This document shows, in pieces, positions 2,676-53,980 of a stretch of 64,000 nt of DNA. The DNA is from Bacteroidia bacterium. Lineage in GTDB: Bacteria > Bacteroidota > Bacteroidia > 2-12-FULL-35-15. Under the pieces are notes generated by a model that saw nothing but the letters and a program-made list of their open reading frames with translations, had not been told where the DNA came from and made no database searches. A program made the translations under genes and the position numbers. The DNA lies in contig JAVHPE010000095.1 in the NCBI GenBank assembly GCA_036170475.1, positions 36,906 through 100,905 of the forward strand, in the 5' to 3' direction. Numbering within the stretch: position 1 is the stretch's first letter; every line of letters begins with the position of its first letter.

Positions 2676-4040
2676 TTATCTCATGGAATTTAATCGTTTT
2701 ACTCCGATTAACTGGTCGTAAAAAGTGCCTTGTTGGCGGTGATAAACATAAATTGTATAATCGTTTTCGGTTTCGTAGTGCATTCCTTCTATTAACGTTT
2801 CATCGGCAGCCGTCACACCATCTTTCAAAAACGTATATTCATAGTTATAATATCCCTGCTTCAGATACAAAGTGCATTCGTACCCAAATCGCTTTTGGTT
2901 ATAATGCATTAAATTTTCCTGATTACATTTCCATGCATTAAATGCACCAAAAACATATAAGTTACCATCAGTTAACAGGGCATCATATTGAAGAAAAAAA
3001 TGTACGTAACAATAATCAGCCTCCACTTCACTATTATTTCCCTCTTGTACTTTTACCAGAAAATTTCCATTAATATCAGTATAAGTAGTATATCTTTTAA
3101 ATGTTCGTTTTTCATCCGATACTAAATTTACCTGATTTCCTGAGGAATCAATATTTACCTTAGCAATTCGCTCAGACTGATAGCGAATACTTTTAATATC
3201 AAAATACCTGAATTCATTGCCACCTGTAAATACATTGTCTTCATCGAAATCATATACAAGTTCCGCATCTTTTACAAATAAAGGTTTTAAAGTGGTTTTA
3301 GCATTATCCCAACGACTATTTTGTGTTATCACTACATTTAAGTCAGCAAAAGGGTTTGTAATAGTGTAGCCAGTATGGTTAATTGTAAAATCTATTTCCT
3401 GTTTAAAATTTCTATCGGAAATAATGCTTGCAGGAGTAACTTTTGAATCAATCATTATTTTATTTTGAAAAACCATAAAACGCCTTGTAATGACAATATT
3501 ATCAGGATTTCCATCCAGATACACTTTTAAAATATAATTACCGGATTTAGTAATGCGGGTAGTATTATTTGGAAAAACAGCATTATAATGTGTAAACTTT
3601 TGAAGCGTATTAAAAGAATAACGGTAATCGTTAATAGTATTATCCGCGAAGCCGTCAATATATTCAGCAGCAACCAAATCAGAAGGTTCCCAATTGTAAT
3701 TACATAAAATTATAGTATAGGAATAGTTTTTCAAATCAGCATCCAAATCATCAAAACTTAATTTTAATTTTTGTTCCAAATCAAGATTAAGGATAGGTTG
3801 AGATAATTCAAAACTTTCATCATGCAGCAATACTGTTTTAATTGATGGTTTATAAACATAATCATCATAACGGATAGTATTATTTCCATAATAATCGTCT
3901 ACTGTAGTATCTATATTGGATGGGGTATTTAGGGCTTTCCACAAACCGGATTTATTTTTTTTTTGTGCGAAGCAAATTGTATTCAACAATAAAAAAACAA
4001 GTAATAGAAGCGGCAGGCATGTGCATTTTTTGTTTAACAT
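2676..4040 (-). CDS. Secreted hypothetical protein (beta-rich, possibly DUF5103-like)
   Basis: 454 aa with an N-terminal signal peptide (LLLLVFLLLNTICFAQ). No motif I can recognise. Contains an A10 homopolymer in codons 27-30 (QKKNKS). Confidence 0.5.
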   Translation of the reverse strand: MLNKKCTCLPLLLLVFLLLNTICFAQKKNKSGLWKALNTPSNIDTTVDDYYGNNTIRYDDYVYKPSIKTVLLHDESFELSQPILNLDLEQKLKLSFDDLDADLKNYSYTIILCNYNWEPSDLVAAEYIDGFADNTINDYRYSFNTLQKFTHYNAVFPNNTTRITKSGNYILKVYLDGNPDNIVITRRFMVFQNKIMIDSKVTPASIISDRNFKQEIDFTINHTGYTITNPFADLNVVITQNSRWDNAKTTLKPLFVKDAELVYDFDEDNVFTGGNEFRYFDIKSIRYQSERIAKVNIDSSGNQVNLVSDEKRTFKRYTTYTDINGNFLVKVQEGNNSEVEADYCYVHFFLQYDALLTDGNLYVFGAFNAWKCNQENLMHYNQKRFGYECTLYLKQGYYNYEYTFLKDGVTAADETLIEGMHYETENDYTIYVYHRQQGTFYDQLIGVKRLNSMR

Positions 4041-45373: not shown

Positions 45374-46345
45374 ATGACAACAGCAAGACATAACTGGACA
45401 GTTACAGAAATACTTGATATATATAATTCGCCTTTACTTGGATTAATTAATCGTGCACAGCAAATTCACCGTGAGTTTAATGATGCTGCTGAAGTTCAAG
45501 TAAGTTCGCTATTGTCAATAAAAACAGGTGGTTGCGTTGAAGATTGCAGTTATTGCTCTCAGGCAGCAAGGTATAATACCGATGTTGAAATACAAAAGTT
45601 AATGGAAGTAAGTCAGGTGTTATTAGCGGCTGACAGGGCAAAAGCAGGTGGCGCATCTCGTATATGTATGGGAGCAGCCTGGCGCGAAGTAAGAGATAAC
45701 AGCGATTTTGACCGGGTGCTGGAAATGGTAAAAGGCGTAAACGAAAAAGGAATAGAAGTGTGCTGCACCTTAGGAATGCTTACTGAAACACAAGCACAAA
45801 AGCTTGCAGATGCCGGGTTATATGCCTATAACCATAATCTGGATACATCAGAGGACAACTATAAAAAAATTATTACTACCCGCAGTTATAATGATCGATT
45901 AGATACAATTAAAAACGTACGTAAAGCTAAAATAACTGTTTGTTCCGGAGGTATTATCGGTTTAGGTGAAACCATTGAAGATCGTGTTAATATGCTGAAA
46001 ACATTATCATCTATGGAAATTCATCCTGAATCAGTTCCAATAAATGCGTTGGTTCCGGTTGCAGGCACTCCAATGGAAAACCAGCCACTTGTTCCTATCT
46101 GGGATATGGTGCGTATGATAGCCACCACACGTATTGTTATGCCTGAAACAGTAGTTCGGCTTTCAGCAGGCCGCACACAAATGAGTTTAGAAGGACAAGC
46201 CTTATGCTTTTTGGCTGGCGCTAATTCAATTTTTGCCGGAGATAAATTATTAACAACCCCTAATCCGGATTTTAATACGGATATGGAAATGTTTAAAACT
46301 TTCGGATTAACTCCAACTAAATCATCTAAACAAATTGAGAGTTAG
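45374..46345 (+). CDS. bioB: Biotin synthase
   Basis: 323 aa. Radical SAM motif [10 protein letters not shown] plus BioB-specific [2Fe-2S] region. Confidence 0.95.
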
Positions 46346-46387
46346 AAAGTTGGAGAGTTGGAGTTTGAAATAGTTGAAATCGCTTAA

Positions 46388-47572
46388 ATGATTCATTCAA
46401 AAAATAAAAAAATAAAAAAAACATCTATTGTTTTTCCCGCTGATAAATTTTTATCCGGTTCTCTTCACAAACGGATAGAACAAAGTTCGTTACGTAAATT
46501 AGTTATTAATAATCAGTTGATTGATTTTTGTAGTAACGACTATTTAGGTTTTGCCAGTAATAAAGAATTAATTGACTTTACCGAACTTGAGATCTCAAAT
46601 CTCAAATCTCAAATCTCAAATCTCTCCGGTTCAACCGGTTCTCGTTTATTAGCGGGCAATTCAGCTTATGCCGAAACATTAGAAAAAAAAACCGCAACAT
46701 TTCACCATGCAGAAGCTGGTTTAATTTATAATTCGGGTTATGATGCAAATGTGGGTTTATTCTCTGCCTTAGGGCAAACAGGGGATACTATCATTTATGA
46801 TGAATTGATACATGCCTCAGTGCATGATGGAATAAGATTATCATCAGCCTCCGCTTTTATGTTCAGGCACAATAACATTTTACATCTGGAAGAACGTCTG
46901 AAAATAGCAAAAGAGATTGTTTACGTTGTTGTTGAAAGCATTTATTCAATGGACGGAGATACGGCATCATTAAAAGAAATTGCTATACTCTGTAAAAAGC
47001 ACAATGCCAATTTAATTGTTGATGAGGCTCATGCAACAGGCATTACACTCAATAATGGCAAAGGAATTGTAAGCCAGTTGAATCTGGAACAGGATATTTT
47101 TGCCCGTATTCATACTTTTGGCAAAGCACTTGGATGCCATGGTGCTATCGTACTTGGAAGCGATTTGCTTCGTAATTTTCTGATCAACTTTTCCCGCTCT
47201 TTTATTTATACTACTGCCTTGCCGGTAAAAAGTCTTGTTGCTGTGAACCAAGCCTATCAATTACTTCAGAAGAGTGAAGACTTGATCAAACAACTTCATG
47301 AACTTATCCGATACTTTAAAAACCATCTTTCAGAAAATCCAAAAGCACAATTAATTGTAAGCAATAGTGCCATACAAAGTATCATTGTTACCGGAAATGA
47401 CAAGGTAAAAAAACTTGCTTCCATATTGCAACAAGGCGGGTATGATGTACGCCCTATTCTTAGTCCGACCGTTCCCAAAGGAAAAGAACGTTTACGTATT
47501 TGTATTCATGCTTTCAATACACAATCGCAAATTCAAGGCTTATGTGATTCTATTAACAAGCACTTTAAATAA
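46388..47572 (+). CDS. bioF: 8-amino-7-oxononanoate synthase
   Basis: 394 aa. Collinear with E. coli BioF (SNDYLGF, PLP-lysine region TFGKALG). Contains an in-frame heptanucleotide repeat at 46592-46624. Confidence 0.9.
   Translation: MIHSKNKKIKKTSIVFPADKFLSGSLHKRIEQSSLRKLVINNQLIDFCSNDYLGFASNKELIDFTELEISNLKSQISNLSGSTGSRLLAGNSAYAETLEKKTATFHHAEAGLIYNSGYDANVGLFSALGQTGDTIIYDELIHASVHDGIRLSSASAFMFRHNNILHLEERLKIAKEIVYVVVESIYSMDGDTASLKEIAILCKKHNANLIVDEAHATGITLNNGKGIVSQLNLEQDIFARIHTFGKALGCHGAIVLGSDLLRNFLINFSRSFIYTTALPVKSLVAVNQAYQLLQKSEDLIKQLHELIRYFKNHLSENPKAQLIVSNSAIQSIIVTGNDKVKKLASILQQGGYDVRPILSPTVPKGKERLRICIHAFNTQSQIQGLCDSINKHFK
46592..46624 (+). repeat. (ATCTCAA)x4 plus partial heptanucleotide repeat in-frame inside bioF
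   Basis: atctcaaatctcaaatctcaaatctcaaatctc, encoding ..EISNLKSQISNL.. Confidence 0.85.
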
Positions 47573-47706
47573 TTATTTGCTTTTGCACACTAATCAATTT
47601 TAACATTGCTATTTAAGCAATTTCCCTCAATAATTTCAAAAAACGAAAAAACATTCCTTATCTTGCGTCTCCAAATTCAACAATATTGAAATATTAAATT
47701 TATACT

Positions 47707-49779
47707 ATGGCCGAATTAGTTCCGATACCGTTTGACCGACTTTTAAAGAGAATTTTCTACGAATATAAAAAGACCGACTCCATCTTTGATTTGTCCTCAA
47801 AAAAGATGTACCAACCGGGAAATGAATTTGATTTATCGGTAAATTTTCTTGGTAAAAATGCTGCAAACCCCGTTGGCCCGGCAGCTGGACCTCATACACA
47901 ACTCGCTCAGAATATTATCCTCGCCTGGCTTGCCGGATCAAGAATACTGGAACTCAAAACCGTTCAGCTCAACGACAGGCTTGAAATTGCAAGACCTTGT
48001 ATAGATATGGCTACCATCGGTTTCAATACCGAATGGTCACAGGAACTTTTACTGGATGAGTCTTTGCATGAATACGTGAAAGCTTCGATGATTATTGAAA
48101 TTCTGAAGCATTGGATGTTTCTTTCCGACAAAACTAAATCGTATACTGCCAAACAATTTGATACTATTTTAGATCTCAGCGTAGGCTATGACCTTGCCGG
48201 GATACAATCAGATAAGATGCGCAACTGGCTGCATTCTATGCGGAATGCAAGTTCTATTATTGAAGAATACAGGAAACAAATTCCATCCGAATTTACAGCT
48301 TACAAAGACCTGTATTTCAATCCTGAAATCAGCGAAACAATAACGCTTTCCACCTTTCATGGAACAAAGCCGGAAGAAATTGAAAGCATCTGCGAATTTC
48401 TTATTTCCGAAATGGATTTTAACGTGGTTGTCAAGATGAATCCTACCATGCTTGGTAAGGAAAAACTCGAGTACCTGTTGCATGAAAAGCTTGGATATAC
48501 ATATATTGAAGTCAATGAAAACGCCTATAAAGCAAACATTGCCTACAATGATGCTGTTGAAATGATAAAAAGATTGCAAGTTAAAGCGGCTAAGTCAGGA
48601 AAAAAATTGGGTGTTAAATTTGGGAACACACTTGAAGTAGTTAATAAAGGTGGTTTTCTGAAAAGCAATTTACAATATTTATCTGGTCAGCCTCTACACA
48701 TCCTACATCTGGCCTTGGTAAATGAATGGAGAAAAACCTTTGGCGCGAATTTCCCGGTCTCTTTTTCAGCAGGCGTTGATGCAAATAATTTTGCTGATTG
48801 TGTATCCATCGGACTTTTGCCGGTTACCACCTGTACCGACCTTTTAAGACCAAAAGGGTATGGACGACTACCGCAATATCTTCAGAATTTAGAAATGAAG
48901 ATGAAAACAAGCGGTTCAAAAAACATTAGAGAATTTATTATTAAATCAGCTAATAATCCCCCCTGCCCCCCTTTTCAAGGGGGATTAACTCAGGATGGAA
49001 GCGCAACTGATGCAATCCCCCTTGAAAAAGCTTGTCCTGAGCCTGTCGAAGGAGGGGGCAGGGGGGATTATTTTGAAAAAGCGGTCATTGCCAATACTTC
49101 TAAACTTCTGAAAAGGAGCATCGAGAATCCTCGCTATCAATCTATCAATAACAGCAAAGCTCCAAGGAAAGTAGGAAGTCACCTGCATCTTTGGGATTGC
49201 CTTAACTGCGATAAATGTATTCCTGTTTGCCCAAATAATGCTAATTTCTTTTTTGATATAGAAGCTGTTGAACTTGACTATTCAAACATTGAAGTGAATG
49301 AGACGGGATGGAAAAAAACAGATGGAGGACATTTTAAAATTGAGAAAAAAAATCAGATTGCAAACTTTGCAGATGCCTGCAACGAGTGCGGCAACTGCGA
49401 TGTATTCTGTCCGGAAGACGGGGGACCTTATATCGAGAAACCGAAATTTTTCGGATCGTTGGAGGCATTCAAACTTAATAAAAATCAAAGCGGATTTTAT
49501 CTTGACTTCAAGCAAAATAAATCTTCATTGACAGGCCGGTTCAAGGACAAGGAATTTGAATTGACTGGGGATTCTATTTTGAACAGGAATGTTTTCAGTT
49601 CAAACACAGCAGCCATTGAAACAAACGCAAGTACACATGAAATATTAAAAGCTTCATTGATCAATTCAAAAACAGGAATGATTGACATGCAATACTACCA
49701 TGCCATGTCAGTCTTGCTGAAAGGAATGTTAAACACAAGCCGTGTACATTTCGTAAACATTGAAGCACACCAATCATAA
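47707..49779 (+). CDS. YgfK-like Fe-S oxidoreductase subunit (putative selenate reductase YgfK family N-terminal region with 2x[4Fe-4S] ferredoxin motifs; lacks the GltD-like flavoprotein domain)
   Basis: 690 aa. The N-terminus is recalled (not aligned) as YgfK-like (..PIPFDRLLKRIFYEY..). Ferredoxin motifs CLNCDKCIPVCP and CNECGNCDVFCP. Carries an in-frame GC-rich palindromic insert at 48951-49074. Confidence 0.55.
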   Translation: MAELVPIPFDRLLKRIFYEYKKTDSIFDLSSKKMYQPGNEFDLSVNFLGKNAANPVGPAAGPHTQLAQNIILAWLAGSRILELKTVQLNDRLEIARPCIDMATIGFNTEWSQELLLDESLHEYVKASMIIEILKHWMFLSDKTKSYTAKQFDTILDLSVGYDLAGIQSDKMRNWLHSMRNASSIIEEYRKQIPSEFTAYKDLYFNPEISETITLSTFHGTKPEEIESICEFLISEMDFNVVVKMNPTMLGKEKLEYLLHEKLGYTYIEVNENAYKANIAYNDAVEMIKRLQVKAAKSGKKLGVKFGNTLEVVNKGGFLKSNLQYLSGQPLHILHLALVNEWRKTFGANFPVSFSAGVDANNFADCVSIGLLPVTTCTDLLRPKGYGRLPQYLQNLEMKMKTSGSKNIREFIIKSANNPPCPPFQGGLTQDGSATDAIPLEKACPEPVEGGGRGDYFEKAVIANTSKLLKRSIENPRYQSINNSKAPRKVGSHLHLWDCLNCDKCIPVCPNNANFFFDIEAVELDYSNIEVNETGWKKTDGGHFKIEKKNQIANFADACNECGNCDVFCPEDGGPYIEKPKFFGSLEAFKLNKNQSGFYLDFKQNKSSLTGRFKDKEFELTGDSILNRNVFSSNTAAIETNASTHEILKASLINSKTGMIDMQYYHAMSVLLKGMLNTSRVHFVNIEAHQS
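48951..49074. repeat. GC-rich nested palindromic element inserted in-frame in the ygfK-like CDS
   Basis: Outer IR aataatcccccctgccccc / gggggcaggggggattatt. Inner IR tttcaagggggatt / aatcccccttgaaa. Confidence 0.75.
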
Positions 49780-49792
49780 CCCATTCCAGCAG

Positions 49793-52405
49793 ATGAGCCA
49801 AACAGAAACCGGACAAAAAGTAAAACTTGATTTTAATCTTAACGGAGAAGCCTTTTCGGGCTTTGTTGACAATGATACATCACTCATGACTGTCCTTCGC
49901 GAGCAGGCAGGACTTACATCTCCTAAAAATGGTTGCGCTCCTCAAGGTTCATGCGGCTGTTGCACTGTCATTGTGGATGGAAAAGCTGTTTCATCCTGCG
50001 TTGTTCCTGCAAAAAGCGCTAATGAAAAAAATGTCCTCACGCTGGAAGGCTTTACTGAAAAAGAAAGGGACGTCTTCGCAAAATCATTTACATTGGCTGG
50101 AGGTCTTCAGTGCGGATTTTGTATTCCCGGAATAGTTGTTCGCACAAAGCATCTTATTAATAAAAATCCGATTCCTAACAGAGAAGAAATTGCCAATGCG
50201 CTAAATAACCATATTTGTCGCTGCACCGGTTTTGTGAAAATTATTGATGCCATTGAATTAGCTGCTCAGGCTTTCAATGGTAAACAAATCCCTGAAGCTG
50301 ATTATTCTGGCAAGATAGGCACAAGCCTGCCGAAAATGGATGGTAAAAAATTTGTCTTGGGCGAGCGTCCTTTTATTGACGATATCACACTCCCTGAAAT
50401 GCAGTATGCAGCTTTTTTATTTTCTCCGCATCCACGTATCAAAGTCAACAAAATCAATACATCTGATGCTGAAAAAATGGTCGGTGTCACGAAGGTAGTC
50501 ACTGCAAAAGATGTTCCGGGACAAATCAATCAGGGCACTATTTATCAGGACTGGCCTACATTTATTGCCGAAGGACAGATTACACACTGCATAAGTGATA
50601 TACTTGCTGGGGTTGTTGCGTCTGATGTTAAGACGGCTCGTAATGCACTTGAAAAAATTATCCTTGATTATGAAATTCTTCCGGGTGTTTTTGATGCGGA
50701 AGAAGCGTTGAAACCGGGTGCTGTTCAGGTTCATGACCATCATGTGAATTTACTCGCAAATTCAATTATCAAAAGAGGGAATGTAGAGGAACAACTTAAA
50801 AATTCAAAATTTGTTGAAACCAGAACCTTTGAAACACAGGTAATTGAACATGCTTTTTTAGAAACTGAAAGTGCGATTGCAAGTAGTAAAGATGGAATTA
50901 TTGAAGTATTAAGCCAGGGACAGGGAATATTTGATGACAGAAAACAAATTGCATCCCTCCTCAATATTAGTGAAGATAAAATCAAAGTTACACTCATCAC
51001 CAACGGCGGTGCTTTTGGAGGTAAAGAAGATTTAAGCGTTCAGGGGCATGTTGCTTTAATGACATTCCTTACCGGGAAGCCAGTGAAGGCTACCTTAAAT
51101 AGGGAAGAAAGTATCCGAATGCATCCAAAGCGTCATGCTATTAAGATGACCTACACTGTTGGCTGCGATGAAAACGGAAAATTAACGGCTGTTAAAGCAC
51201 GGATGATTGGTGATAAAGGTGCTTATGCATCTGTAGGAACAAAAGTGATAGAGCGCGCTGCAGGCCATGCCTGCGGACCTTATAACATACTTCATTCCGA
51301 TGTGGAGGCACTTGCTGTTTATACCAATAACCTCCCTTGTGGCGCCATGCGCGGATTCGGAGCCAATCAGGCGGCCTTCGCAATGGAAGGCATGATGGAT
51401 ATTCTAGCAGAGAAAGTCGGTATTGATGGATGGGAAATGAGATGGAGAAATGCTGTTGACAAAGGTGATACTTTTGTTACAGGTCAGGTTTTTGATAAAG
51501 CGGTAGGCATTAAGAAAACGTTGCTTGCAGTAAAGGACATATATTACTCATCTAAAAATGTTGGGATTGCCTGCGGAATTAAAAATGTGGGTATCGGTAA
51601 TGGTGTGATTGAAAAAGGTCAGGCGATGGTTACCGTTAATCCGGATGAGACCATTACTATCAATACCGGATTTACTGAAATGGGGCAAGGTTTCTGCACC
51701 ATTATGACTCAGTTCTTTTGTGATGTTACAGGTATAGATGCCAGAATTGTAAGGGTAAACATTGATACCACAGAACCAACTCCTTGTGGAATGACCACCG
51801 CATCAAGGGCTACAGTCCTTGGAGGAAGAGCCATGATTAAAGCGGCTCAGGAAATGAAGAAAGATTTGGATAAAGGATTGAACTTAAAAGAACTTAAGGG
51901 TAAAAAATATTTCGGTGAAGTTGTAATTGATTATACAACCTCATTGGAAGCCAAGGCAGAAAAGCCGATCACACACATGTCATTCAGTTTTGCAACCCAG
52001 TTATGTATTTTGGATGATAAGGGAAAATTAAAAAAATATGTTGCTGCACATGATGTAGGCAGGATCATCAACCGAAAAATGATTGAAGGTCAGTTGGAAG
52101 GCGCTATACACATGGGATTAGGCTATGCGCTTACAGAAGAATTAAAATTAAAAGATGGCGTACCTGAATCTTTCAAATTCCGGTCACTTGGTATGTTACG
52201 TGCCAAGGATATGCCGGAAACACAAATACTATTAATTGAAGAAAATGAACCTGAAGGTCCGTTTGGAGCAAAAGGTATTGGCGAAGTCGGGCTTGTTCCA
52301 ACAGCAGGAGCGGTAGCAGGTGCTTTATATAAATTCGATGGCATCAGAAGATATAAGTTGCCGATGAAAGATTCTCCTGCGGCAAGGGCGATCAGTTCAA
52401 AATAA
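49793..52405 (+). CDS. Molybdenum hydroxylase, XdhD/aldehyde oxidoreductase (Mop)-like: two [2Fe-2S] domains fused to a molybdopterin-binding domain, no FAD domain
   Basis: Plant-type [2Fe-2S] CGCCTV, then CGFCIPG and CRCTG, then an ~700 aa Moco-binding domain. The ORF is open from 49760, overlapping the upstream gene. The likely start is MSQTETGQ at 49793. Confidence 0.8.
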   Translation: MSQTETGQKVKLDFNLNGEAFSGFVDNDTSLMTVLREQAGLTSPKNGCAPQGSCGCCTVIVDGKAVSSCVVPAKSANEKNVLTLEGFTEKERDVFAKSFTLAGGLQCGFCIPGIVVRTKHLINKNPIPNREEIANALNNHICRCTGFVKIIDAIELAAQAFNGKQIPEADYSGKIGTSLPKMDGKKFVLGERPFIDDITLPEMQYAAFLFSPHPRIKVNKINTSDAEKMVGVTKVVTAKDVPGQINQGTIYQDWPTFIAEGQITHCISDILAGVVASDVKTARNALEKIILDYEILPGVFDAEEALKPGAVQVHDHHVNLLANSIIKRGNVEEQLKNSKFVETRTFETQVIEHAFLETESAIASSKDGIIEVLSQGQGIFDDRKQIASLLNISEDKIKVTLITNGGAFGGKEDLSVQGHVALMTFLTGKPVKATLNREESIRMHPKRHAIKMTYTVGCDENGKLTAVKARMIGDKGAYASVGTKVIERAAGHACGPYNILHSDVEALAVYTNNLPCGAMRGFGANQAAFAMEGMMDILAEKVGIDGWEMRWRNAVDKGDTFVTGQVFDKAVGIKKTLLAVKDIYYSSKNVGIACGIKNVGIGNGVIEKGQAMVTVNPDETITINTGFTEMGQGFCTIMTQFFCDVTGIDARIVRVNIDTTEPTPCGMTTASRATVLGGRAMIKAAQEMKKDLDKGLNLKELKGKKYFGEVVIDYTTSLEAKAEKPITHMSFSFATQLCILDDKGKLKKYVAAHDVGRIINRKMIEGQLEGAIHMGLGYALTEELKLKDGVPESFKFRSLGMLRAKDMPETQILLIEENEPEGPFGAKGIGEVGLVPTAGAVAGALYKFDGIRRYKLPMKDSPAARAISSK

Positions 52406-52594
52406 GGTATTGTTAATTTAATGGAGTAATACTTAATTTGAAACATATTAAACCTTAGTGTCTTTGAGTCTTTGTGGCTAAAAAATATTGCCACTAAGGC
52501 ACAAAGACACTAAGAAACACAAAGAATACAATAAATAAACAATGGACCTTAATATATCTGACAAATAAAAATAAACCATCAAATAAAAATAAAC

Positions 52595-53794
52595 ATGAGC
52601 ACACTCACACAATCAAAGGCAGAACTGCTGCTAAATTCTCTTGGTAACCTAAAAACAGACATGGTTAACCGTGATTTCCTTTTAACCTGGGAGCGCAAAG
52701 ATGATGAAATAAAAGCTGTACTTGACGTAGCTCAATTAATGAGCGACTTGCATAAGTCAGGCACTTCAATTAAATCTTTTGACACAGGTTTGGCGATTTC
52801 ACTTTTCCGTGATAATTCCACCCGTACACGTTTTAGTTTTGCTTCTGCCGCAAATGCACTGGGATTAGGACTTTCCGAGTTAGATGAAGAAAAATCACAA
52901 ATTGCACATGGCGAAACGGTTCGCGAAACAGCCAATATGATTTCATTCCTTGCAGAAACTATCGGTATCCGTGATGATATGTTTTTGGGTGAAGGCAATA
53001 AATACATGAAGGAATTTGGTAATTCTTTGCAGGAAGGTTATGAAAATGGCATTCTTCATCAACGACCTACTATCGTTAATCTTCAATGTGATATTGACCA
53101 TCCTACACAAGCGCTTTCTGATTTAATGCAATTGAAAAATACGTTCGGATCAGTTGAAAACCTACGTGGGAAAAAGATTGCAATGACATGGGCATATTCA
53201 CCAAGTTATGGTAAACCGCTTTCTGTACCTCAGTCAATTATCGGATTGATGTCACGCTTTGGAATGAATGTTTCACTTGCATATCCCGAAGGTTATGGCT
53301 TGATCCCTGATGTTATTGAACAAGCCAAAAAACAATCGGTACAAAGTGGCGGCAAATTTGAAATTGTAAACAATATGGAAGATGCTTTCAAAGATGCCGA
53401 TATAGTATATCCTAAATCTTGGGCTCCATTTAATGTTATGAAGCGCAGAACGGTATTATTAAACAACAATGATAAACAGGGTCTAAAAGATCTTGAAAAA
53501 GAATGTCTGGCTAATAATGCAAAATTCAAAAACTGGGAGTGTGATGAAAGCAAAATGAAAACGACTAAAAATGGTAAAGCGTTGTATATGCACTGCCTGC
53601 CTGCCGACATTACAGGTGTAAGTTGTGAGCAAGGTGAGGTATCTAAAGATGTATTTGAAAAATACCGTCTTTCCACTTATTCTGAAGCTGGTTACAAACC
53701 ATTTGTTATTGCTGCTATCATATATCTTTCACGTATTCAGAACCCGGTTGAAAAACTCAGGAGTATCGTTGAAAATAATAAAAGAAGGAGTTAA
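52595..53794 (+). CDS. Knotted carbamoyltransferase, YgeW-like (ATCase/OTCase family)
   Basis: 399 aa. Carbamoyl-phosphate binding STRTR motif plus HCLP. Length and N-terminal extension resemble YgeW rather than ArgF/PyrB. Confidence 0.75.
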   Translation: MSTLTQSKAELLLNSLGNLKTDMVNRDFLLTWERKDDEIKAVLDVAQLMSDLHKSGTSIKSFDTGLAISLFRDNSTRTRFSFASAANALGLGLSELDEEKSQIAHGETVRETANMISFLAETIGIRDDMFLGEGNKYMKEFGNSLQEGYENGILHQRPTIVNLQCDIDHPTQALSDLMQLKNTFGSVENLRGKKIAMTWAYSPSYGKPLSVPQSIIGLMSRFGMNVSLAYPEGYGLIPDVIEQAKKQSVQSGGKFEIVNNMEDAFKDADIVYPKSWAPFNVMKRRTVLLNNNDKQGLKDLEKECLANNAKFKNWECDESKMKTTKNGKALYMHCLPADITGVSCEQGEVSKDVFEKYRLSTYSEAGYKPFVIAAIIYLSRIQNPVEKLRSIVENNKRRS

Positions 53795-53930
53795 CAAAGG
53801 AAGTTGAATTGCCTGAACTCTTTATGTTTTAATCTAAACTGTAGATTTACCTTTTCCGAAGTTTCAAACGTTGGAAAAAATTTACTTTAAAATAAAATAC
53901 ATTGGTTTGTTTTTGAATTTGGTATAAAAC

Positions 53931-53968
53931 AAAAAAATCCCACAATTTAAAAATTGTGGGATTTTTTT
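53931..53968. terminator. Bidirectional intrinsic terminator between the ygeW-like gene and the convergent 156-aa gene
   Basis: aaaaaaatcccacaatttaaaaattgtgggattttttt, a perfect 13-bp stem flanked by A and T runs. Confidence 0.8.
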
Positions 53969-53980
53969 AGAATAAATAAA

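Follow-up and report, generated by a model that had tools for sequence, protein, structure and literature searches.

The question raised by this locus is whether three neighboring genes in a 64,000-nucleotide stretch of a Bacteroidia genome (assembly GCA_036170475.1, contig JAVHPE010000095.1; the whole 64-kb stretch is called the window below) form a metabolic system of their own or belong to a larger one. The genes encode a short form of the Fe-S protein YgfK, a fused molybdenum cofactor (Moco) hydroxylase with no flavin adenine dinucleotide (FAD) domain, and the carbamoyltransferase YgeW, an arrangement that the original prediction, made from the DNA letters and their translations, had taken for a minimal form of a selenium-dependent gene set. 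Open reading frame (ORF) calls together with NCBIfam and Pfam matches bear out the adjacency, with three full-length ORFs on the same strand at the predicted positions:

47707..49779, plus strand: short YgfK, 690 aa, predicted 2,8-dioxopurine reductase (N-terminal TIGR03315 match, Pfam Fer4 matches)
49793..52405, plus strand: fused 2×[2Fe-2S] and molybdopterin hydroxylase, 870 aa, predicted urate/2,8-dioxopurine oxidoreductase (TIGR03311, Pfam)
52595..53794, plus strand: YgeW knotted carbamoyltransferase, 399 aa (NF005538, TIGR03316, E. coli homology)

The reading that we prefer, at a probability of about 60%, is that the trio represents the middle part of a reductive urate cluster of the Bacteroidota type, which was broken up in this lineage, with the other pieces dispersed. 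The link of the trio to the ygfK/xdhD/ygeW neighborhood of E. coli, as first proposed, is supported by homology to YgfK, YgeW, and the xanthine dehydrogenase (XDH) family. The description of the catabolism encoded there as uncharacterized is outdated, as the reductive urate/2,8-dioxopurine pathway was solved in 2025 (PMC12507026; bioRxiv 10.1101/2025.04.24.650524; commentary PMC12990295), having been worked out in gut Bacillota and E. coli. In step 1, urate is converted to 2,8-dioxopurine by XdhD-YgfM (E. coli, with NADH) or by the FAD-less, Se-dependent XdhAC/DOPDH (C. sporogenes), and in step 2, 2,8-dioxopurine is dearomatized by YgfK, or by UacX in C. difficile. SsnA (step 3) opens one ring and HyuA (step 4) the other; YgeW (step 5) catalyzes a ureido phosphorolysis that releases carbamoyl phosphate, from which YqeA makes ATP; YgeY (step 6) hydrolyzes the other ureido group, and YgeX (step 7) releases pyruvate.

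By homology, the trio is predicted to provide the enzymes for steps 1, 2, and 5 of this seven-step route, with putative substrates taken from E. coli and Clostridium enzymology. The Moco enzyme, which is DOPDH/XdhAC-like, would convert urate to 2,8-dioxopurine by taking away its C6 oxygen. Short YgfK would pass electrons through two [4Fe-4S] clusters to a flavin mononucleotide (FMN) in a barrel like that of dihydropyrimidine dehydrogenase (DPD) and dearomatize the 2,8-dioxopurine, and YgeW would act later, releasing carbamoyl phosphate by phosphorolysis of one ureido group in 2,3-diureidopropionate. Because its products would cover only steps 1, 2, and 5 of seven, the trio does not make up a pathway alone, and because both redox steps would consume electrons, it is not redox-balanced. 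The missing SsnA, hydantoin-opening enzyme, YgeY, and pyridoxal phosphate (PLP)-dependent lyase (steps 3, 4, 6, and 7), as well as carbamate kinase, would most likely be encoded elsewhere in the genome.

The evidence that the trio belongs to a larger unit comes from related genomes, in which proteins of the window's relatives and of E. coli were mapped on the best 80 of 240 species-representative loci. In the closest relatives, whose short YgfK is 78–85% identical to that of the window by BLAST and 81–89% identical over aligned positions, nine genes lie on a single strand. Their products are, in order, a ThrC-like PLP enzyme (414 aa, with a Cys-rich N terminus), SsnA (431 aa), short YgfK (660 aa), the XDH-family Moco enzyme (870 aa), YgeW (400 aa), a CysK-like PLP enzyme (484 aa), YgeY (401 aa), carbamate kinase (~320 aa), and an aspartate carbamoyltransferase (ATCase)-like protein (307 aa). 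The SsnA, YgeY, and carbamate kinase of the relatives all exceed their NCBIfam cut-offs and are 40%, 57–58%, and 46–47% identical to the respective E. coli proteins; in many relatives the last genes of the cluster are those for carbamate kinase and the ATCase-like protein, the latter exceeding the cut-off of TIGR00670. Clusters of the nine-gene type were found in Bacteroidota, Ignavibacteriota, and Acidobacteriota relatives, and the Bacteroidota-type cluster, in which the ThrC-like and CysK-like PLP enzymes are always encoded and HyuA and YgeX are not, occurs at L001/L016 (6964-20447) and at most of the loci L013–L047.

At every sufficiently flanked locus with a short YgfK at least 49% identical to the window protein (L013–L047), SsnA is encoded directly 5′ of short YgfK, and in nearly all of these loci the XDH gene follows directly 3′. 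Over the whole set, the XDH gene stands beside that of short YgfK in ~45 of the 80 loci, mostly directly adjacent, and the gap between the two genes is 8–13 nt in the window and its three closest relatives. The PLP enzymes and YgeY are present in most related loci with a long enough downstream flank, carbamate kinase is present in many, and the Planctomycetota loci contain the same genes in a rearranged order. Among the Bacteroidota-type loci with enough flank, the window is the only one to hold the trio alone, with neither SsnA upstream nor the rest of the cluster downstream. The genes of the trio are thus conserved together, but inside a larger nine-gene cluster and not as a three-gene unit; with SsnA upstream and further cluster genes at related loci, and with steps 1, 2, and 5 being non-consecutive, the notion of a minimal form does not hold.

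Measured against the published gene set for the pathway, the window has at most three of the seven genes and the relatives L001/L016, L002, and L015 have five of seven, lacking both HyuA and YgeX. The published marker of an SsnA gene beside the reductase (Li et al.) fails in the window, where bioF stands upstream. Across the 80 mapped loci YgeX was found in none and HyuA in one, and because the relatives' cluster is without these two enzymes, its later steps may differ from the published route. Genes tied to the selenium cofactor are seldom found beside the cluster (YqeB-like at 6 of 80 loci, MocA-like at 9 of 80, selD and yqeC at 0 of 80), and de novo ORF clustering of the 80 loci revealed no conserved ferredoxin, flavodoxin, transporter, or GltD-like gene beside the Bacteroidota-type cluster. 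The fused FAD-less enzyme is often accompanied, beside the cluster, by an XDH of the conventional type with three subunits (XdhA/B/C-like, including an FAD subunit; L029 1890-5310, L035 3428-7204, L052 2-3717, and L085–L087), whose presence fits a division of labor between xanthine oxidation and urate reduction. A variant at L099 (49-7479) has no reductase of the YgfK type; it encodes a PreT-like protein (380 aa), a PreA/UacX-like protein with DHO_dh and Fer4 domains (410 aa), YgeW, a CysK-like PLP enzyme, YgeY, and an XdhC/CoxI-like protein.

In terms of the individual enzymes, the short YgfK of the window matches the Se_ygfK profile TIGR03315 with 408 bits over profile positions 4–398 of 1012, and a second short stretch of the profile is also matched. 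The proposed YgfK family was therefore recovered, but through the N-terminal part only and below the cut-off of 835 bits. Residues 5–406 of E. coli YgfK align to the barrel of the window protein with 38% identity over 412 aa, and residues 905–979 align to its Fe-S domain, encoded at 49207-49506, with 28% identity. E. coli residues ~410–900, which form the GltD-like NAD(P)H/FAD module, have no counterpart in the alignment, and neither a Pyr_redox nor a Fer4_20 Pfam domain was found in the protein. The view that this YgfK is truncated and lacks its GltD-like half is thus correct as to the missing module, but the loss is internal, since the C-terminal Fe-S domain and tail are present:

Short YgfK layout: FMN-binding TIM barrel resembling DPD and dihydroorotate dehydrogenase (DHODH), aa ~1–415; linker; 2×[4Fe-4S] ferredoxin-like domain; C-terminal tail
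49198..49233, plus strand: first CxxCxxCxxxCP [4Fe-4S] motif, C498/C501/C504/C508 (Pfam Fer4)
49378..49413, plus strand: second CxxCxxCxxxCP [4Fe-4S] motif, C558/C561/C564/C568 (Pfam Fer4)

The eight Fe-S cysteines are unchanged in 55 family members, and the window protein retains 91 of the 91 columns that are invariant across 75 relatives. A search of the Protein Data Bank (PDB) by sequence returned no match for short YgfK. An AlphaFold2 model computed from a 55-sequence alignment (mean predicted local distance difference test score, pLDDT, of 79; predicted template modeling score, pTM, of 0.71) has its best PDB fold matches in pig DPD and in DHODHs. The identity to DPD is 13–16% in structural alignment, and compared with DPD, short YgfK has a large β-rich insertion within the 2×[4Fe-4S] domain and a tail. 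Short YgfK is thus a PreA-/PydAc-like unit in which, as in PreA and Clostridial PydAc, an FMN barrel and two [4Fe-4S] clusters are present without the NAD(P)H/FAD half. When the sequences are lined up by eye, window residues 213–219 (48343-48363) place LSTFHG opposite LSCPHG of DPD, which would put a Thr at the position of the catalytic Cys671; a possible alternative proton donor is C98 (in RPCID), an invariant cysteine in a low-confidence loop of the model.

Proteins of the ~660-aa short form make up a large conserved family and are not truncation products. The relatives number at least 120 matches at 55–89% identity, nearly all ~630–730 aa in length and mostly near 660 aa, and the GltD-like module is missing from all ~660-aa members. 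When each species was scanned through a single genome, 240 relatives in at least six phyla were confirmed. Almost all of the best 80 are from metagenome-assembled genomes (MAGs), and they represent Bacteroidota, Ignavibacteriota, Acidobacteriota, Planctomycetota, Verrucomicrobiota, KSB1, and others.

The Moco enzyme matches TIGR03311 (Se_dep_XDH) over profile positions 5–846 of 848 with 959 bits, above the cut-off of 830, and contains the Pfam domains Fer2, Fer2_2, Ald_Xan_dh_C (a/b-hammerhead), MoCoBD_1, and MoCoBD_2, with no FAD domain among its Pfam matches. The start of the gene is most likely ATG 49793 and not TTG 49760, because an 870-aa product is on record and relatives align from that position. 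An identity as XdhD was ruled out by a TIGR03313 score of 228 bits (cut-off 1102), by 24% identity to E. coli XdhD, and by the lack of ygfM in the window, so that the initial label "XdhD/Mop-like" gives way to a TIGR03311, DOPDH-like enzyme. The protein retains 240 of the 240 columns invariant in other family members. Hand mapping on alignments to bovine xanthine oxidase finds equivalents of E802, R880, F914, and E1261 and places Ile at F1009 and Thr at A1078; the two changes resemble the reported DOPDH signature relative to xanthine oxidase (F1009V and A1078T/S; Liu et al.), as far as such a mapping through the bovine enzyme can indicate. The enzyme is probably selenium-dependent.

Among solved structures, the nearest are aldehyde oxidoreductase of Desulfovibrio (MOP; 1VLB/1DGJ) and nicotinate dehydrogenase of Eubacterium barkeri (NDH; 3HRD). 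MOP has the same fused, FAD-less 2×[2Fe-2S] and Moco layout and matches the full length (E 1e-87), and NDH, which is selenium-dependent, is the best match to both Moco domains. NDH is a hydroxylase of four subunits, including an FAD subunit, whereas the window enzyme is a single fused chain without FAD; the Glu and Arg that bind the purine (bovine E802 and R880) are both present in the window enzyme, whereas NDH has Leu at the E802 position. Like the window enzyme, C. sporogenes XdhAC (DOPDH) is a fused Fe-S and Moco protein of a selenium-linked family without FAD.

For the third gene, both YgeW models are matched above cut-off over the full length (NF005538, 657 bits against 453; TIGR03316, 627 bits against 500), the identity to E. 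coli YgeW is 64%, and 86 of the 86 columns invariant in other family members are retained, so that the proposed YgeW-type call is confirmed.

The genes are under strong purifying selection and are not decaying. The ratio of nonsynonymous to synonymous substitution rates (dN/dS) between the trio and its nearest relative is 0.05–0.08, the same as between genomes with full clusters; distances to an outgroup are not inflated, which indicates no rate acceleration, and the substitutions private to the trio proteins are ordinary in number and conservative. The borders of the trio carry two further features:

47639..47706, 5′ of the short ygfK gene, plus strand: conserved leader, or promoter-proximal region (blastn matches to L093 and L094; alignment with L093, L002, and L013)
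53930..53969, no strand assigned: perfect 18-bp hairpin with A/T runs on both sides (hairpin reading)

The leader is an AT-rich block of ~70–75 nt that ends at the ATG and is shared with L093 (2731-2799), L002 (~1500-1576), and L013 (~3430-3496). It is conserved regardless of the length of the SsnA-YgfK spacer, which ranges from 66 to ~260 nt in relatives, and is possibly a promoter or operator. Rfam yielded no match to a riboswitch or any other RNA family, either in the leader or in the rest of the window, and a sigma-70 promoter scan gave results at chance level. The hairpin, as judged from its sequence, is likely a bidirectional terminator for the trio and the convergent gene for a 156-aa protein.

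The upstream border also appears to be the site of a rearrangement. Homology between the window and a canonical relative begins exactly at the end of that relative's SsnA gene, which places a putative breakpoint between the bioF stop (47572) and 47639. The junction of bioF and the short ygfK gene is known from the MAG contig alone, and seven per-run assemblies of the SRR254905xx series independently show the break after YgeW. The five per-run contigs with a bioB exactly like that of the window (L100–L104) all stop ~77–78 codons into bioF (window ~46388-46621), and these shared ends point to a repeat or a strain-variable site within bioF.

Candidate pieces of the cluster were found in the same series of runs. 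In runs 548 and 527 of SRR254905xx, which hold window-type contigs too, a gene for the CysK-like PLP enzyme that is 94% identical to the L002 copy has no YgeW upstream and has an IS200-like Y1 transposase downstream. In another run of the series, the homology of a contig with ThrC-like and SsnA genes (L095) ends right after SsnA and gives way to unrelated genes. The contigs L093 and L094 were considered as the window's own missing part and rejected, as they belong to a different, canonical strain that is 86.7% identical. IS200-like Y1 transposases (PF01797) lie in or beside the cluster at L003 8245-8715, L004 6474-6944, and L096 1750-2232. They stand between the XDH gene and YgeW in the cluster of the 84% identical relative and after the separated CysK-like PLP gene, and may be linked to cluster fragmentation and to the mini-elements in the short ygfK gene.

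These mini-elements account for the length of the window's short YgfK, which exceeds the family norm of ~660 aa by 30 residues because two copies of a 32-nt palindromic element, AATCCCCCTTGAAAAGGGGGGCAGGGGGGATT, are inserted in frame:

48955..48986, minus strand: 32-nt palindromic mini-element, copy 1, in frame with one extra base as 11 codons, NPPCPPFQGGL
49014..49069, plus strand: mini-element, copy 2, split by a nested 24-nt insert, 19 codons in frame (IPLEKACPEPVEGGGRGDY)

Between the two copies lies the native sequence TQDGSATDA, in a variable, low-confidence linker between domains. The element is 100% identical by blastn-short at L003 4758-4789, L004 2987-3018, and L013 4771-4802, where it occupies the same insertion site although the surrounding coding DNA is only ~80% identical; the short ygfK gene holds two copies in the window and one in the 84% identical relative. 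Per-run assemblies break precisely at 48955, where the Logan contigs L006 and L009 begin. From its sequence, the element looks like a repetitive extragenic palindrome (REP) or a miniature inverted-repeat transposable element (MITE) that tolerates translation. The nested insert (49029-49052, AGCTTGTCCTGAGCCTGTCGAAGG, read as CPEPVEG) has exact matches of 17–18 nt elsewhere in intergenic DNA (L003 1741-1758, L013 1754-1771, and L054 5903-5919), which suggests a second small repeat family.

The trio could instead be a decaying remnant in which the flanking genes were deleted, possibly with the help of IS200-like or REP-like elements, and the pathway is already non-functional, the trio not yet having been hit by a disabling mutation. 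The presence of three of the nine cluster genes in 64 kb, the non-consecutive steps, the mobile mini-elements within the short ygfK gene, and the IS200-like transposases in relatives' clusters and beside the separated PLP gene are all compatible with such decay, to which dN/dS over a long branch is blind if the relaxation is recent. We nonetheless consider decay doubtful: the three ORFs are full length with every family-invariant column intact and a typical set of private substitutions, comparison with the outgroup reveals no faster rate, leader and terminator are both undamaged, both insertions are in frame in a variable, low-confidence linker, and the CysK-like PLP gene, at least, persists in the same runs. 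That the three genes are instead a genuinely minimal system, with the FAD-less XDH and short YgfK as a self-contained redox pair for some other purine or pyrimidine substrate and YgeW handling the product, is very unlikely. Such a system would explain why the trio has its own leader and terminator, why only 8–13 nt separate the short ygfK and XDH genes in the window and in the three relatives nearest to it, and why both redox enzymes do without external electron-input modules. However, among the 80 mapped loci, none with enough flank shows the trio free of SsnA or other cluster genes beside it, YgeW acts after two ring-opening hydrolases in the known pathway and no hydrolase is present here, and both redox steps are reductions, so that the pair is not self-balanced (PMC12507026).

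An assembly artefact, in which the join of bioF and the short ygfK gene is chimeric and SsnA really lies upstream, is likewise very unlikely. It would account for an upstream junction seen only in the MAG contig, with the per-run contigs of the trio starting inside the short ygfK or XDH gene and those with bioB all ending ~78 codons into bioF, and a related population with the canonical SsnA-YgfK junction does co-occur. Yet the downstream break is repeated in the seven independent assemblies, so that the cluster is truncated there at least; the canonical L093 is only 86.7% identical across the junction and is another strain; and no repeat prone to mis-joining is seen at 47572-47639. The reading of a cluster broken up and dispersed has points against it as well. 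No other pathway gene is tied to this genome, the SsnA fragment on L095 is somewhat more diverged and comes from a run that showed no window-type contigs, and the co-occurrence of the canonical-cluster population (L093) means that the fragments could belong to other strains. In the 64-kb window neither selD, yqeB, yqeC, and mocA (by tblastn) nor ferredoxin genes were found. The two redox proteins are only 24–38% identical to the E. coli enzymes, their substrates being assigned by homology, and the cluster of the relatives itself is without HyuA and YgeX.

The surroundings of the trio agree with the first description of them. The genes lie between bioB-bioF (45374-47572) and two convergent minus-strand genes for products of 156 aa and 292 aa, secreted or lipoprotein-like and without a Pfam match, as was foreseen for the next genes; the remaining neighbors in the window are housekeeping genes. 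A tblastn search of the whole 64 kb with E. coli proteins detected no homologue of ygfM, hyuA, ygeX, ygeY, yqeA, ssnA, or ygfT, which upholds the statement that no ygfM-like subunit, carbamate kinase, or amidohydrolase follows the trio. A foreign origin was considered from GC content, which is 0.39 in the trio and 0.34 in the window, but bioB likewise has 0.39 and the difference is no evidence.

Set beside the E. coli cluster (ygeW-ygeX-ygeY-hyuA-yqeA ... ygfK-ssnA-ygfM-xdhD; Li et al. 2025, PMC12507026), the window has YgfK, YgeW, and XDH-family homologues in common with it. Unlike in E. coli, the Moco enzyme is not XdhD, no YgfM is present, YgfK has no GltD-like module, and only three genes are left; the relatives have ThrC-like and CysK-like PLP enzymes and an ATCase-like gene in place of HyuA and YgeX. 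Among the reductases, C. difficile UacX likewise lacks an FAD domain, and a ferredoxin-type donor has been proposed for it. Short YgfK is nonetheless a YgfK-type barrel with a C-terminal domain and not a PydA/UacX protein (PF01180), and the YgfK of C. sporogenes is full length. In Verrucomicrobiota (L058–L065 and L081–L083; e.g. L064 7143-9626, minus strand, and L068 5395-7104, minus strand), short YgfK is found without XDH beside an adenine deaminase and a divergently transcribed 827-aa protein with Fer4_20 and Pyr_redox_2 domains (PreT/GltD-like). This arrangement, in which a separate PreT-like gene recalls PreA/PreT, amounts to a full-length YgfK divided over two genes and perhaps serves a different purine route.

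Neither redox enzyme of the trio has a flavin/NAD(P)H module for electron input, an absence already noted from the letters and confirmed by Pfam and by the E. coli alignments, and none is encoded nearby. Because no such module is present in or near these enzymes, a separate low-potential carrier would be required, and by analogy with Clostridial PydAc, which depends on ferredoxin, and UacX, the donor would most likely be a ferredoxin or flavodoxin. A low-potential donor has also been proposed for C. difficile XdhD/UacX (PMC12507026). NAD(P)H is not used by the FAD-less XdhAC, and what feeds it electrons in the cell is not known (bioRxiv 10.1101/2025.04.24.650524, PMC12507026); the pathway's reviewers name the donor of this first, FAD-less enzyme among the problems still to be solved.

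Arguing by analogy, the pair of short YgfK and XDH may share one electron entry point, and the narrow spacing of their genes together with the adjacency in ~45 loci allows for shared entry via the YgfK Fe-S chain. In a bolder proposal, which we regard as unlikely, short YgfK would be the dedicated redox partner of the FAD-less Moco enzyme, and the two proteins would constitute a four-electron "urate reductase" in which one low-potential donor feeds the [4Fe-4S] chain of YgfK, which in turn would supply its own FMN and, via the [2Fe-2S] clusters of XDH, the Moco site.

The pathway itself was already known, and the supposed minimal form of the original prediction turns out to be a fragment. The novelty lies in a YgfK without its flavin module, paired with an FAD-less, selenium-type hydroxylase in a cluster without HyuA and YgeX, in environmental phyla. 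The two module-less reductive enzymes are encoded side by side in most of the Bacteroidota, Ignavibacteriota, Acidobacteriota, and Planctomycetota loci. Full-text literature searches, including PMC12507026 and bioRxiv 10.1101/2025.04.24.650524, found no description of the short form of YgfK, and of the terms checked, neither Bacteroidota nor Planctomycetota is mentioned in these two papers. Judging from the methods stated by Liu et al., surveys by BLAST that require 80% coverage of full-length YgfK probably miss the short variant.

The window itself is a less valuable example, since it holds only a fragment of the cluster; the short-YgfK family as a whole offers a clean system for studying how electrons enter this pathway. 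If the "urate reductase" proposal were true, it would answer the question of the physiological donor of DOPDH/XdhAC and would represent a third solution for electron input, besides the NADH-linked and the separate-ferredoxin forms, one that would extend the pathway to environmental Bacteroidota, Acidobacteriota, and Planctomycetota.

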